DNA of 64,000 nucleotides from Clostridiales bacterium UBA7001 (GTDB lineage Bacteria > Bacillota > Clostridia > TANB77 > CAG-508), in the NCBI GenBank assembly GCA_002449785.1, contig DJXP01000019.1, positions 102,676 to 166,675 of the forward strand. The letters run 5' to 3'. A program made the translations under genes and the position numbers. Shown here in pieces: positions 44,604 through 58,215 of the stretch. Position 1 is the first letter of the stretch; the number at the start of each line of letters is the position of its first letter. A model generated the notes under the pieces. The model was not told the DNA's origin and ran no database searches. It saw nothing but the letters and a program-made list of their open reading frames with translations.

Positions 44604-45821
44604 ATGGAAAATATGAAAAAATTAGTAACATCAATGTTATTAATAGTATTATTGTTTAATTTCATATTTTTAAATAGTTCTTATGGAGCAGCTGAAGATA
44701 ATGCAGATGACTCAGTTTTAGCTCAAGAAGCTAAGCCAAGTGACGGAATGATGAAAAGTATTTTAGAGGAAGGTACAGCTGCTCATAAGCAAGATGATAG
44801 TATTAAAACGACACTATCTTTTGCTAATTTTGGTTCATCAATTGTCGGTTTTGTTTTAGGAATATTATCAAGGCTTTTTAATGCAGTTATTGCATTAGAA
44901 TTAGATATTATTTTTGGACAATTAACATATACAGTTGAAAATGGTGAATTACAATATTTTGTTACAATAGATAGATTAGTTTTTAATAGAATTCCACTAC
45001 TTAATGCTAATTACTTTAATACAAATGATACATATAAAATTGGAGATTTAGAACTACCAATTAATGAAAATAACAAATTAATTAAAGAAAGTATAGCAAG
45101 TGTTTATACAATATGTAGAATATTAGCTCTTATTATTGGTTTAGTGGTTTTAGTATATATTGGTATAAGAATGGCTATTTCTACTGTTGCATCAGAACAA
45201 GCAAAATATAAGAAGATGCTTATTGGTTGGTTTGAAAGTATTGTTATTATTTTTGCAATGCCTTATATTATGGCTGCTTTGTTCACCATAGAAGAAGTTC
45301 TAATTGGTGTTTTCTACGAGCTTAGAAATTCATTAATGGGTGGTAACACTAATGAAGTATTTGAAAATGTTGTAAGAAATATTGTGTTAGAACTAGTGTT
45401 TTCTGCATCTGGAATTGAGCTTACAATGTGGTCTATAATGTATTGGGTTTTATTATATATGGAAATCAAGTTTTTATGGACATATACAAAGAGATTTTTT
45501 ATGATAGGTTTTCTTGTAGCAATTGCTCCATTAGTTACAATAACATATTCAATAGATAAAGCAGGAGATGGAAAAGCACAAGCTTTTTCTAATTGGCTTA
45601 AAGAGTTTATGTTAAATGTATTAATACAGCCATTACATGCTATTATTTTTTTAGTAATTGTAATGACTGCAAATAATATAGCTTCAAAAGCTCCTATTAT
45701 AGCTATTTTCTTGTTGTTATCAATGGGAACAGTTGAAAAAATGGTAAGAGTTGTATTTAATGTTAGTGATTCTGTTACATTTAATGGTATAAGAGATAGA
45801 CTATTCAAGAAAGGAAAGTAA
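44604..45821 (+). CDS. VirB6/TcpH-like polytopic membrane protein, paralog 1 (short form)
   Basis: Signal peptide, 'LLNANYF', 'LVYIGIRMAISTVASEQAKYKKML' and 'ITYSIDKAGDGKAQAFSNWLKEFMLNVLIQPLHAIIF'. Confidence 0.65.
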   Translation: MENMKKLVTSMLLIVLLFNFIFLNSSYGAAEDNADDSVLAQEAKPSDGMMKSILEEGTAAHKQDDSIKTTLSFANFGSSIVGFVLGILSRLFNAVIALELDIIFGQLTYTVENGELQYFVTIDRLVFNRIPLLNANYFNTNDTYKIGDLELPINENNKLIKESIASVYTICRILALIIGLVVLVYIGIRMAISTVASEQAKYKKMLIGWFESIVIIFAMPYIMAALFTIEEVLIGVFYELRNSLMGGNTNEVFENVVRNIVLELVFSASGIELTMWSIMYWVLLYMEIKFLWTYTKRFFMIGFLVAIAPLVTITYSIDKAGDGKAQAFSNWLKEFMLNVLIQPLHAIIFLVIVMTANNIASKAPIIAIFLLLSMGTVEKMVRVVFNVSDSVTFNGIRDRLFKKGK

Positions 45822-45825
45822 ATAT

Positions 45826-55580: not shown

Positions 55581-55614
55581 TTTATCAATTAAAAATATGA
55601 GAAAGGGGCTTAAA

Positions 55615-58215
55615 ATGAAAAAAGCATTATATAAAATATTAATAGCACTTATTGTTATATTAATGTTATTGGAATTCGTTTTTAATGTTAATAGAAGTAA
55701 TGCTGAGACTAAAAATGCAACTATTGGTCCCGATTTTATTAATGCTGTTGCAAATGCTACAGGTGGTGTCGTGTCAATTATATATTGGCCTAAAAGAATT
55801 GAACTAATTGGTATAGCATTTATAATAGATAAAACCTTTTATAATTTAGCCGCCTCAGATGATCCAGATTTAGGGGGATACTTAAATTTAGATTATCTTA
55901 CACCTTTTCAAATATTTTTTAATAAATATAAGTTGATTGATGCAAATGTTTTAGATTTAGCAACTATTAATGAGAGTGATAATACTATTTCATTTACAAT
56001 AAGAAAAAATGTTTCAATATGGTTTTATGTAATGAGAGTTTTTTCTGCTGCAGTTTTGTTAGCTATATTAGTTTATATAGGAATTAGAATGGCACTTTCT
56101 ACAATAGCTTCTGATAAAGCTAGATATAAAGAAATGTTTATTGATTGGGTAGTTAGCTTAATTCTGATATTTGTAGTTCATTTGATTGCCGTATTTATTA
56201 TTAATATAAATAATATTATTGTTGGAGCACTTGAATCTCTTTCAGGAGATTTAGTTTCATTAGAAGATATAAGTAAAATTTATAATGAAATAGCATTACT
56301 TGCTACATTAGGTATAGGTATACCTAGTATAACAGCTACAATAGTTTATTGTGCAATGGTATTTATGACAATTGGATTTTTTATAGCATATGTTAATCGT
56401 ATGATTAAAATTGCTTTCTTAGTTATAATTTCACCACTTATATCAATTACATATTCAATAGATAAAATAAAAGATCAAAAAGCTCAAGCTTTGAATACAT
56501 GGCTTAAGGAATTTATATTTACAGTTTTAATTCAACCATTTCATTGTGTAATGTATTTAGCATTTACGAATACAGCTTATAGATTATTAACACCGTTTTT
56601 AATTGATGGTGATGGCGCTTTAGGTAATCTTAAGGATATTGCTGGTACATTTGCAAATACTGTTATTGTGTCAAAAGATTACAATTTACTTACCACTGCT
56701 GTCTTAGTTGTAATTTCACTTATATTTATAAAAAAAGCAGAAGAGGTTGTAAGAAAAATATTTGGATTTACTGATACTAATAAAAGTACATCTTTTGGTG
56801 CAGGTTTAGCTATGAGTGTTATGGCTGTTAGTCAAGCTAAAAATATTGGAACTGCTACTAGAAAAGGTATAAATACAGCTAAAAGTTTTGCACCAAATCT
56901 TTCAAAAGCTGTTAGCCATGATTTTAATATGTTAAAAAATACAGGCTTAGGACAAAAGATAAGTACTGGATTAAATAGTGCAGGTGAAGCTATAGGTAAT
57001 AGTGGTGCTGCTAAAGGATTAGATAAAGCTATTACTTCATTTTCCAATACAGGTTTTGCTAGAACAACTGGAAGATTAGCTGGAAAAACAGGTAAAAAAA
57101 TTACTGGTTTTAGCCAAGGCTTGAGAGGAAAAGCTTTTAAAGTAACGAATTCTAGAGTATGGAAAGCATGGGCAAGAAAAAATTCTCTTGCAAGTGTTAT
57201 AGGTTCAATGTATGGTATTTCTCAATTGGTAAATGGGGACAATATTATGGAAGTTTATGCTGATTCAAAGGCTGTTGAAGAAGGTGTACAAGCATTTATA
57301 GGAACTGCGGATGGAAAAATTGCTGATTATGCTTTAGGTGCTGCATCTGAATTAGATGATACGGAATATAAACAAAAACTTGCATTATACCATAAACAAT
57401 CAAGTGATCCAAATAAAGATCCATTAGAAGAAGCTGTTAAAGGGTTATCTGATTTAAAATATAGTGATGGAATTAATTCTGAAGAAGAGTTTAGAAAAAG
57501 AGTTGTTACTGATAAAATGGCATATGGCAAAGGATATAGAGAACGTTCTAATGATAGGAAAATTGAAGCAAAACAAATTAGAGATAGTATAGAAGCTGAA
57601 AATAAGAAAAACAATGTTACAGAATATACTGATGAGCAAAAGATAAAATTGAAGGAAGCTGAAGAGTTAGAAGAAGAAGCAGAAGAATTAGGTAAATTAG
57701 CAGATACTGAAGAACTTATGAATCAAAAAGATGAGCTTGCTAATTTCTATTCTTTAGAGGCAATTTTAGCTAGAACAGAGAATAGGAATACTCCTCCTGG
57801 AAAAAGTGATTTTAAAAAGGCTTCTGAAGAGCTTAAAAAAGAAGTGCTAAAATTAATTCAACAAAGAAAAAGTGAGAATAATGTTGATGATGGATATGTA
57901 GATGAAGATGATTCTAAAACAGCTGAAGCATTACAAAAATCATTAGAAGAAATTATTCAATCATCTGTTAATTCTGATAAAAAAATTAATCTTGATTCTT
58001 TAATTAAAAAATCTTTAGATGTATCTGAAAAAGATGATCCAGTTGTTTTTGCAAGAATGATGGAAAAAACAGAACAAATAAGACAGCTATATTTAGAGAA
58101 AAAGGTTGCTGAATCTTTTTCTGCAACTACAAAAAATGATGGTGATGAAGAAAGATATGCTAGAGTTCTTTCAAATAAATTAAGAAGTAAAGCATTATCT
58201 AGAAATAAAAAATAA
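55615..58215 (+). CDS. VirB6/TcpH-like paralog 4 with a roughly 480-aa C-terminal extension
   Basis: 'LIDANVL', 'LVYIGIRMALSTIASDKARYKEMF' and 'ITYSIDKIKDQKAQALNTWLKEFIFTVLIQPFHCVMY'. Confidence 0.65.
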   Translation: MKKALYKILIALIVILMLLEFVFNVNRSNAETKNATIGPDFINAVANATGGVVSIIYWPKRIELIGIAFIIDKTFYNLAASDDPDLGGYLNLDYLTPFQIFFNKYKLIDANVLDLATINESDNTISFTIRKNVSIWFYVMRVFSAAVLLAILVYIGIRMALSTIASDKARYKEMFIDWVVSLILIFVVHLIAVFIININNIIVGALESLSGDLVSLEDISKIYNEIALLATLGIGIPSITATIVYCAMVFMTIGFFIAYVNRMIKIAFLVIISPLISITYSIDKIKDQKAQALNTWLKEFIFTVLIQPFHCVMYLAFTNTAYRLLTPFLIDGDGALGNLKDIAGTFANTVIVSKDYNLLTTAVLVVISLIFIKKAEEVVRKIFGFTDTNKSTSFGAGLAMSVMAVSQAKNIGTATRKGINTAKSFAPNLSKAVSHDFNMLKNTGLGQKISTGLNSAGEAIGNSGAAKGLDKAITSFSNTGFARTTGRLAGKTGKKITGFSQGLRGKAFKVTNSRVWKAWARKNSLASVIGSMYGISQLVNGDNIMEVYADSKAVEEGVQAFIGTADGKIADYALGAASELDDTEYKQKLALYHKQSSDPNKDPLEEAVKGLSDLKYSDGINSEEEFRKRVVTDKMAYGKGYRERSNDRKIEAKQIRDSIEAENKKNNVTEYTDEQKIKLKEAEELEEEAEELGKLADTEELMNQKDELANFYSLEAILARTENRNTPPGKSDFKKASEELKKEVLKLIQQRKSENNVDDGYVDEDDSKTAEALQKSLEEIIQSSVNSDKKINLDSLIKKSLDVSEKDDPVVFARMMEKTEQIRQLYLEKKVAESFSATTKNDGDEERYARVLSNKLRSKALSRNKK

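Follow-up and report, generated by a model that had tools for sequence, protein, structure and literature searches.

A chromosomal locus in uncultured gut Clostridia encodes four paralogous, probably VirB6-family membrane proteins with a pilin-like hairpin, three of them extended by long C-terminal tails

The stretch of DNA analyzed here (hereafter the window) comprises 64,000 nt of Clostridiales bacterium UBA7001 (assembly GCA_002449785.1, contig DJXP01000019.1, positions 102,676-166,675 of the forward strand) and has a guanine-cytosine (GC) content of 25%. Its plus strand carries a putative type IV secretion system (T4SS) locus, in which four paralogous membrane proteins, named B6_1 to B6_4 (VirB6-like paralogs 1-4), follow a VirB4-family ATPase. 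The genes between 40558 and 60437 form a compact block, overlapping or separated by gaps of less than ~20 bp, with six further small genes upstream, starting at 37697, and a hydrolase gene downstream at 60931. The order runs from seven VirB2-like pilins through a PrgI/VirB3-like, a TrsD-like and the VirB4 protein to the VirB6 block, which is interleaved with bitopic proteins, and ends with the wall hydrolase (Table 1). B6_1, which begins 13 bp past the virB4 stop, consists of a core only, whereas the other three paralogs continue into long tails. Read from its first ATG (55597), paralog 4 has 872 amino acids (aa); public gene calls carry the 866-aa form starting at 55615 and hold no record of the longer one. 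Promoter and terminator scans were uninformative at 25% GC, returning 46 sites vs 37 expected.

An earlier inspection of this DNA, made from the letters and the translated open reading frames (ORFs) and referred to below as the sequence-only reading, had reported four motifs shared by the ORFs of 405, 1403, 930 and 866 aa, and all of them were present in our alignment. The paralogs match each other pairwise with BLASTP E values of 1e-31 to 1e-85 and 29-39% identity, the matches being limited to the N-terminal 330-450 residues, and they align over a collinear core of ~350 residues with 42 invariant columns. Each core comprises a signal-peptide-like N-terminus and six hydrophobic helices, as judged from hydropathy and, for B6_1 and B6_3, from AlphaFold secondary structure. 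The N-terminal signal-like segment (motif 1) ends in an A-x-A-like site, motif 2, L(D/N)xN(F/Y/V)(F/L), includes the invariant N136, motif 3 reads LV(Y/F)(I/V)GI(R/K)(M/I)A..T.AS..A.Y..M, and motif 4, WLKEF...VLIQP.H, deviates in paralog 2, which has WLSEYIINVIIQTVH (WLSEY..IIQTVH) at this site. The predicted extracellular N-domain of B6_2 also contains a Cys-rich insert with 7-10 cysteines in the arrangement CxxC...CC...CxCxC..C..C, which has been conserved among some 30 species of the window-like clade, is absent from distant lineages and may represent a metal-binding knot. The sequence-only reading had named collapsed or duplicated contigs as an objection that would count against the array. 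Nothing was found in favour of such an artefact: the copies are only distantly related to each other, the exact proteins recur on 2-15 independent contigs (NCBI, JGI, ENA, Logan), the order 405-389-513-1403-930-866-172-323-ABC-hydrolase is identical in three independent assemblies, with ENA and JGI both represented, and synteny extends over 80 species. The identical order in independent assemblies and the recurrence of the exact proteins thus exclude an assembly artefact, to which we assign a negligible probability.

The sole recurrent Pfam signal of the cores is T4SS_pilin (PF18895), which covers the first two membrane helices together with the LVYIGIRMAISTVAS..A.YKKM loop, between residues 151 and 234 of paralog 1 and residues 127 and 204, approximately, of paralog 3. 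It stays sub-threshold in three of the four paralogs and is matched in 23 of 40 orthologs as well as in a plasmid homolog. When a profile built from the seven pilins of the locus was compared with the B6_1 profile by hhalign, pilin residues 50-132 aligned with the hairpin of the core at 94.9% (E 4.7e-8), and the independent B6_3 profile gave 93.1% (E 3.1e-7), as compared to 0.2-0.4% for reversed-sequence controls. The likeness is also visible in the consensus, GIKYM.AAPGD.ADIKK in the pilins vs GIRMAISTVAS..AKYKKM in the cores. By these profile comparisons, we show homology between the first two membrane helices of the core and the pilins encoded in the same locus. The full-length protein is no pilin, because it is at least three times longer and has extra helices. 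VirB6 forms a pentameric platform at which VirB2 is recruited and stacked (PMC12624023, PMC12857230), and VirB2-like pilins have been modelled on VirB6 pentamers for pCF10 and many Gram-positive plasmids (bioRxiv 10.64898/2025.12.18.695078). The hairpin could represent a built-in first pilin layer on which the VirB2-like pilins stack. No mention of a VirB2-homologous hairpin inside VirB6 was met in the available parts of these three sources.

Direct assignment of the cores to a known family failed, with Pfam, NCBIfam and PHROGs giving sub-threshold matches only (T4SS_pilin, Mbov_0396, MMCAP2_0566 and phrog_3750), and PDB sequence searches with the core, by profile and by single sequence, returned no match. 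One ortholog (P0158) bore a precomputed PF19590 flag, which was rejected, as the rerun gave no match at E ≤ 10. The weak NCBIfam matches, to Mbov_0396 (E 5e-5 and 2e-4) and, in three paralogs, to MMCAP2_0566, concern models of membrane proteins that are encoded beside VirB4 in integrative conjugative elements (ICEs) of mycoplasmas. At our locus, the PrgI-like, TrsD-like and VirB4 genes lie immediately 5' of the paralogs, and this context is kept in the loci that cover the stretch. AlphaFold models of B6_1 and, built separately, B6_3 reached a pLDDT of 75.6 and 70.8, respectively. The Foldseek comparison that the sequence-only reading had proposed yielded, for both models, chains of R388 TrwI/VirB6 as the best compact match in the PDB, with a probability of 0.93/0.91, a TM score of 0.55/0.49 and a root-mean-square deviation (rmsd) of 6.0 Å over 277 columns for B6_3, and a probability of up to 0.57 and a TM score of 0.43-0.45 for B6_1, the rmsd of the superpositions being 6-8 Å. 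Because the Foldseek E value was about 1 in both cases, the predicted VirB6-like fold of the cores is only suggestive.

A chain of homology leads in the same direction. Relatives of the window VirB4 reside on plasmids of C. botulinum and C. beijerinckii (40% identity) and on Bacillus megaplasmids (about 30%). In C. botulinum, p12/29 encodes a pilin, a small protein at the PrgI position that gave no family match, a ~330-aa protein, VirB4, an 864-aa protein and a hydrolase (L081, 9247..17723). The core profile aligns with the 864-aa protein over 214 columns (hhalign 95.5%, E 1.5e-8), and B6_3 matches it by BLASTP with an E value of 4e-15. This protein in turn matches 325 plasmids; most come from the Bacillus cereus group, B. 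anthracis plasmids are among them, and the annotation 'type IV secretion system protein' is attached to some of the genes matched. The 1453-aa member encoded in the same module of B. mycoides p487 (L083, 5003..15452) can be aligned to the core over the W(L/I)(K/R)EF...LIQ..HA block (77%, E 2e-5) and reaches the TrbL/VirB6 family PF04610 at a sub-threshold E of 6e-4. Most plasmids with such a VirB4 were typed 'non-mobilizable' by MOB-suite. Whereas the sequence-only reading had described the ORFs as VirB6/TcpH-like, the two halves of this label fared differently. VirB6 likeness is supported by operon context, predicted fold and the homology chain, with a direct TrbL/VirB6 profile match missing. 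The likeness to TcpH did not hold up: the core profile aligned with pCW3 TcpH at only 9.9% (hhalign), and the motif blocks differ, TcpH having VQQPW (residues 242-246), which is absent from the four paralogs, in place of their W[LIF]xE[FYM]...Q..[HQ]A. We therefore regard the cores, with good confidence, as divergent VirB6-family proteins and not as relatives of TcpH.

Table 1. Genes and other features of the locus and of the remaining window (positions in the window; the hairpins and the insert are parts of the respective proteins).
Feature	Length (aa)	Position	Strand	Basis or remark
Seven tandem VirB2-like pilin genes	137/131/126/128/127/127/135	37697..40965	+	Pfam, BLASTP
PrgI/VirB3-like small membrane protein		40946..41341	+	Sub-threshold Pfam PrgI, E 1.9e-4
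TrsD-like protein (p416), resembles N-terminal part of VirB4	416	41325..42575	+	NCBIfam
VirB4-family ATPase	665	42594..44591	+	NCBIfam, Pfam
Paralog 1 (B6_1), tail-less VirB6-like core	405	44604..45821	+	ORF; BLASTP; AlphaFold; Foldseek
Pilin-like hairpin of B6_1		about 45054..45305		hhalign, Pfam
Bitopic protein (p389), acidic predicted ectodomain	389	45826..46995	+	One N-terminal transmembrane helix
Bitopic protein (p513), acidic predicted ectodomain	513	47006..48547	+	
Paralog 2 (B6_2), core (residues 1 to ~455) and ~950-aa tail	1403	48557..52768	+	
Cys-rich insert of B6_2 (residues ~170-192)		~49060..49135		
Paralog 3 (B6_3), core (residues 1 to ~355) and ~575-aa tail	930	52788..55580	+	
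Pilin-like hairpin of B6_3		53166..53399		hhalign, Pfam
Paralog 4 (B6_4), core and ~480-aa tail	866	55615..58215	+	ORF opens at 55597
Two bitopic proteins, acidic predicted ectodomains	172 and 323	58230..59735	+	Conserved at end of VirB6 block
ABC-type ATPase	233	59736..60437	+	Pfam ABC_tran, E 2.7e-34
G5-SH3-glucosaminidase cell-wall hydrolase, then bitopic protein	440, then 277	60931..63107	+	Pfam G5, Glucosaminidase, SH3_3
D12-class adenine methyltransferase		627..1484		
ChW-repeat GH25 lysozyme		16796..17944		
ORF without family match, then two adjoining radical-SAM enzymes	122, then 433 and 297	30776..33325		

Several of the neighbouring genes resemble parts of the same type of machine. 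The seven pilins match Pfam T4SS_pilin (PF18895) and TrbC/VirB2, several of them above threshold, and are mutually paralogous (BLASTP E down to 1e-26, identity 22-55%). As stated in a 2025 review, VirB2 is not found in Gram-positive T4SSs apart from those of Patescibacteria; a December 2025 preprint reports VirB2-like pilins in most Gram-positive plasmids, and tandem arrays like the seven-gene one were not met in the portion available. The PrgI/VirB3-like gene keeps its position in all loci reaching that far upstream. p416, which has one N-terminal transmembrane helix by hydropathy and is syntenic in the related loci that cover that stretch, weakly matches positions 97-271 of the NCBIfam model VirB4_plasma (the mycoplasma VirB4 model), of which the 665-aa VirB4 covers positions 280-889. 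On the sequence level, VirB4 appears to be split between the membrane-anchored p416 and the 665-aa ATPase in a TrsD-like arrangement; the combination of TrsD and VirB4 has been described for pGO1-type and Patescibacteria systems (PMC12102498). The ATPase itself matches the NCBIfam CD1110-type (E 2.6e-60) and Mbov_0397 (E 4.6e-58) models, both under the curated cut-offs, and P-loop_TraG, AAA_10 and DUF87 in Pfam. Within the VirB6 block, p389 and p513 are paralogs (BLASTP E about 1e-17) with Asn/Tyr-rich ectodomains and are candidates for VirB8-like or wall-spanning parts; p389 had no match in the family libraries searched and is gone from more distant lineages, and p513 had no PDB sequence match and is kept in most loci. 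No confident family match was obtained for the 172- and 323-aa proteins, which, together with the 277-aa one, make up the two or three acidic bitopic proteins at the end of the operon. The ABC ATPase is found at this place in independent assemblies as well, and a scan of neighbouring ORFs gave no permease gene. The glucosaminidase probably plays the role of VirB1, as a candidate analogue, and the plasmid modules have a hydrolase gene at the corresponding site, namely a C39/3D peptidase on the C. botulinum plasmid and a lysozyme-family protein on the B. mycoides plasmid. Past the end of the locus lies a tadA-like deaminase gene of housekeeping type. In other parts of the window, neither the D12-class methyltransferase nor the GH25 lysozyme was seen to have mobile-element genes next to it, and the pair of radical S-adenosylmethionine (SAM) enzymes may form a small peptide-modification cluster, which appears unrelated to the T4SS.

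A genome scan yielded 302 matching stretches, from which 80 species loci were kept. All of these stem from uncultured gut Clostridia of 25-35% GC, among them Candidatus Scatovivens and Clostridium sp. CAG:571, and one is located on a closed 1.8-Mb chromosome. The order pilins, prgI, p416, virB4, B6_1, (p389), p513, B6_2, B6_3, (B6_4), p172, p323 is kept across the loci. Each paralog has its own ortholog series, B6_1 being the best conserved in the comparisons made, with 45-75% identity in closer and about 33-40% in the most distant loci; at 90% clustering, it has 944 homologs, all unnamed and about 400 aa long. Depending on the lineage, there are two, three or four paralogs, with four in the near relatives of the window and with B6_1 plus a B6_3-like protein of 513-656 aa in the two-paralog lineages. 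Every locus read through to p172 carries the tail-less copy adjoining virB4 and at least one tailed copy. The family as a whole is large: a search of 1.84 billion proteins with a profile of the four cores retrieved 4282 clusters at 50% identity, of which 2757 reach E ≤ 1e-30, and the best 150 of the 4282 clusters range from 373 to 2295 aa; the members listed all lack a name. When the plasmid collection was searched with the region (megablast) and with paralog 1 and the paralog 3 core (tblastn), no match was obtained; the link to plasmids was reached via VirB4 only. No description of this locus was found in the literature searched on TANB77 type IV secretion and on PF18895.

The tails follow the last core helix of paralogs 2-4 for about 950, 575 and 480 aa, in line with what had been read from the translations, and the B6_2 tail does contain the two additional hydrophobic segments that had been noted (residues 728-745 and 832-849). 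The tails had also been described as low-complexity or coiled-coil sequence. This description holds only in part, the AlphaFold model of the paralog 3 tail showing confident helical domains (residues 428-526 and 605-760) and long helices (781-929) in addition to low-confidence Ala/Gly-rich linkers (356-403 and 528-601). The tails are thus predicted to be modular helical domains on flexible linkers rather than just low complexity. A comparison across relatives, as the sequence-only reading had suggested, revealed that the tails vary in length and diverge far more than the cores. Between B6_2 and 40 orthologs, identity amounts to 42-56% in the core (32% over the Cys-rich insert) and to 6-25% in the tail, of which the block 701-750, containing the hydrophobic segment GFLGTAAMFVGLSTFAF, is best conserved (36%). 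B6_2 itself measures 1079-2185 aa in this set and goes down to 795 aa in more distant loci, and the B6_3 tail remains alignable across orthologs at 13-33% identity. Between paralogs, the first ~185 residues of the B6_4 tail align with the first ~255 of the B6_3 tail (hhalign 96.4%, E 1.3e-9), and neither the B6_2 tail nor the tail of the plasmid homolog was found related to these two by hhalign. From one paralog to another, the tails have thus either been exchanged or drifted so far apart that any kinship is no longer recognisable. No meaningful tandem repeats were found in the DNA underlying the tails, searches of the tails against PDB sequences and families returned nothing beyond coiled-coil or apolipoprotein-like helical noise, and Foldseek gave vinculin-like matches only (TM score 0.09).

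Extended VirB6 proteins and the multiplication of VirB6 are already known in principle, and the comparison with Rickettsiales made in the sequence-only reading proved apt. The Anaplasma phagocytophilum operon, sodB-virB3-virB4-virB6-1..4 (PMC7648143, PMC3556328), has four tandem virB6 genes directly after virB3 and virB4, all 'extended' with large hydrophilic regions, and the Rickettsiales Rvh system further resembles our locus in that virB2 is multiplied and the system is chromosomal, non-conjugative and found in a reduced genome. It differs in that Anaplasma is a diderm alphaproteobacterium with a machine of mating-pair formation (MPF) class T, whereas the host is monoderm here; its VirB6 proteins have recognisable TrbL/VirB6 domains; the VirB6-4 tail (4,322-9,935 aa) consists of tandem repeats; and a paralog without tail is a feature of the clostridial set. 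The T4SS of Patescibacteria/Saccharibacteria is likewise monoderm, chromosomal, without linked relaxase and lineage-wide in small genomes, and it combines 2-11 divergent VirB2-like pilins with PrgI/VirB3, TrsD, VirB4, VirB6 and a nearby wall hydrolase (PMC12102498; reviewed in PMC12857230). It belongs to another phylum, and no report of tandem extended VirB6 multiplication was met in the available part of PMC12102498. The module of C. botulinum p12/29 and the Bacillus cereus-group plasmids (pilin, PrgI, ~300-aa protein, DUF87 VirB4, extended VirB6 of 864/1453 aa in total, hydrolase) shares the gene order, a homologous VirB6-like core and 30-40% identity in VirB4, yet it is plasmid-borne, has one pilin and one VirB6 each, and its tails are unrelated in sequence. 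R388 TrwI/VirB6 and pCF10 PrgH, both minimal pentameric platforms, hold the same position in the machine, but they are single-copy proteins of ~300 residues without tail or sequence-level match to the cores. Finally, pCW3 TcpH of C. perfringens is large (832 aa) and polytopic as well and has a hydrophilic region at its C-terminus, and its gene lies close to those of the VirB4-like TcpF and a glucosaminidase; unlike the paralogs, with which it shares no detectable homology and no common Pfam match, it belongs to an FtsK-type (TcpA) conjugation system. The clostridial locus differs from the Rickettsiales, Patescibacteria and plasmid systems alike in the combination of a monoderm host with VirB6 multiplication, of tail-less with tailed copies, and in the detectable pilin-like hairpin. 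The four-copy extended arrangement is described for Rickettsiales, and we found none for Gram-positive bacteria in the literature searched.

No relaxase, coupling protein (T4CP) or integrase was found among the ORFs scanned in the 64-kb window, and tblastn with pCW3 TcpA, TcpB and TcpM retrieved nothing from the window, the 80 species loci or the C. botulinum and B. mycoides plasmid loci. With none of these genes found there, the locus looks like a domesticated system and, considering its apparent vertical inheritance as well, it is therefore probably not a conjugation apparatus. By analogy with the Patescibacteria T4SS, the machine is more likely a domesticated cell-contact or exchange device. 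The sequence-only reading had mentioned neither the hairpin of the core nor the array of seven pilin genes, nor that the locus is chromosomal, apparently free of a relaxase and present throughout the lineage. Overall, we interpret the four proteins as VirB6-family subunits, one minimal and three 'extended', of a chromosomally fixed monoderm (MPF-FATA-like) T4SS or pilus machine, a reading to which we assign a probability of about 0.72. In such a machine, the cores would assemble above the VirB3/VirB4 motor into a pentameric platform, either as homo- or as hetero-oligomers, as in R388 and in the modelled PrgH-PrgF of pCF10, and the resulting pilus or conduit would cross the wall opened by the glucosaminidase. 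Duplication could have allowed different platforms, or mixed pentamers, to serve different members of the diversified pilin set; across lineages, the number of pilins goes up with that of the VirB6 copies.

A number of points weigh against this reading. The relaxase and coupling-protein scan covered the window ORFs, and either gene could lie elsewhere in the genome. TrbL/VirB6 Pfam models (PF04610 or related) had no match at E ≤ 1 in the four paralogs and none at E ≤ 0.01 in 40 orthologs, the homology chain ends in a B. mycoides match of 20.1 bits as compared to a cut-off of 25.9, the Foldseek E values are about 1, and all-helical membrane folds match easily. Although the number of detectable pilin genes rises with that of the paralogs (means of 2.5, 4.7 and 6.8 for two, three and four paralogs), this trend is confounded by phylogeny and BLAST sensitivity. 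We also considered that the paralogs might instead be pilin fusions, that is giant minor pilins or tip or adaptor subunits with a VirB5-like function, which would enter the pilus by their VirB2-like hairpin and display the tail at its tip or base. The significant pilin-like hairpin, a signal peptide as in pilins, T4SS_pilin as the only Pfam signal of the cores and the failure of profile scans to recognise a VirB5-like gene in the operon would all suit such proteins. We nevertheless deem this improbable, given that three to four more conserved hydrophobic helices, with the strongest invariant motifs, follow the hairpin, that the whole core superposes on TrwI/VirB6, that the plasmid relative reaches the TrbL/VirB6 profile, if sub-threshold, and that profile scans revealed no other VirB6 candidate in the operon. 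A comparably low probability applies to the idea that the locus is the transfer module of an ordinary ICE, with the paralogs being recent duplications without special role. Plasmids of Clostridium and Bacillus do carry the nearest VirB4 and VirB6-like relatives outside the lineage, 107 of the 325 plasmids that the VirB6-like protein matches have been typed as conjugative, and flanking genes are common to only 7-9 of the 80 loci. An ICE is hard to reconcile with the lack of a relaxase, T4CP or integrase in the 64 kb, with the housekeeping-type deaminase gene after the locus and with paralogs that are old, at 29-39% identity and each with its own ortholog series; furthermore, identity to B6_1 falls from 57% to about 33% across the 80 species while gene order is kept, which fits vertical descent.

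Within the VirB6 interpretation, the side of the membrane on which the tails lie had to be weighed separately. Placing them by hydropathy count alone was rejected, because the R388 structure contradicts hydropathy-based VirB6 topologies. Across 215 cores, the density of Lys and Arg is 0.60 in loop C-D, 0.16 and 0.17 in loops A-B and D-E, 0.17 after the last core helix, and low (0.07-0.08) in the N-terminal region and loops B-C and E-F. This charge pattern fits an N-out protein with five spans, a membrane-dipping segment D containing an invariant proline, and a C-terminus inside, a topology that A. tumefaciens VirB6 is reported to have as well (as cited in PMC7648143). Per 100 residues, the tails have a net charge of +0.4 to +1.6, like the cytoplasmic ATPases, whereas the predicted exported domains of the same operon are all acidic, with net values of -2.2 to -9.2. 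We lean slightly towards a cytoplasmic location, where the tails, as fast-evolving helical-bundle and coiled-coil modules on flexible Ala/Gly linkers, might at best guess serve as scaffolds recruiting substrates or partners and thereby replace the coupling protein not found in the window. Nearly as serious, though held at somewhat less than even odds, is an extracytoplasmic location, with the tails forming a wall-spanning stalk, a fibril, an adhesin or surface modules that emanate from the VirB6 platform or are cleaved and released. Tails placed outside would diversify because of contact with partner cells or the host, and they do evolve far faster than the cores, with lengths of about 150 to 1700 aa across loci. 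A cleaved signal peptide followed by all six hydrophobic helices of the core would amount to N-out/C-out, and a coiled coil of 150-300 residues could span the Gram-positive wall. This placement is at odds with the Lys/Arg-rich segments that flank helix D and follow the last helix in the 215 cores, with the net-neutral to basic charge of the tails, and with the sequence and Pfam scan, in which no sortase motif or wall-binding domain was seen. Precedents from other systems speak for the outside. Only two N-proximal helices of R388 VirB6 are anchored in the membrane and most of its 'transmembrane' helices reside in the periplasm (PMC12857230), and therefore hydropathy and positive-inside arguments on the tails may mislead. 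In Anaplasma, the C-terminal regions of VirB6-3 and VirB6-4 are accessible to trypsin on intact cells, and the C-terminal domain of F TraG functions in mating-pair formation and in entry exclusion with TraS of the partner cell (PMC7648143).

According to a 2025 review, extended VirB6 proteins are widespread and the role of their extra domains is not known (PMC12857230). The lineage described here offers a graded natural series for probing tail function, with tail-less and tailed copies, two to four paralogs and tails of ~150-1700 aa, and it belongs to a large, unannotated VirB6-like family. The pilin-like hairpin of the core suggests a testable mechanism by which VirB6 would nucleate the VirB2 pilus. 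Going one step further, the platform may represent a tethered first pilus turn, with two to four platforms and matching pilins building a wall-crossing conduit for contact-dependent exchange; we consider this elaboration rather unlikely as it stands, but if true, both the essential T4SS of Patescibacteria and the Rickettsiales Rvh system would have a counterpart in Gram-positive gut bacteria. With this locus, a pattern known from Patescibacteria, in which a lineage with small genomes conserves a chromosomal T4SS that has a pilin array and no linked relaxase, extends to abundant uncultured gut Clostridia, which hints at a cell-contact lifestyle of these bacteria.

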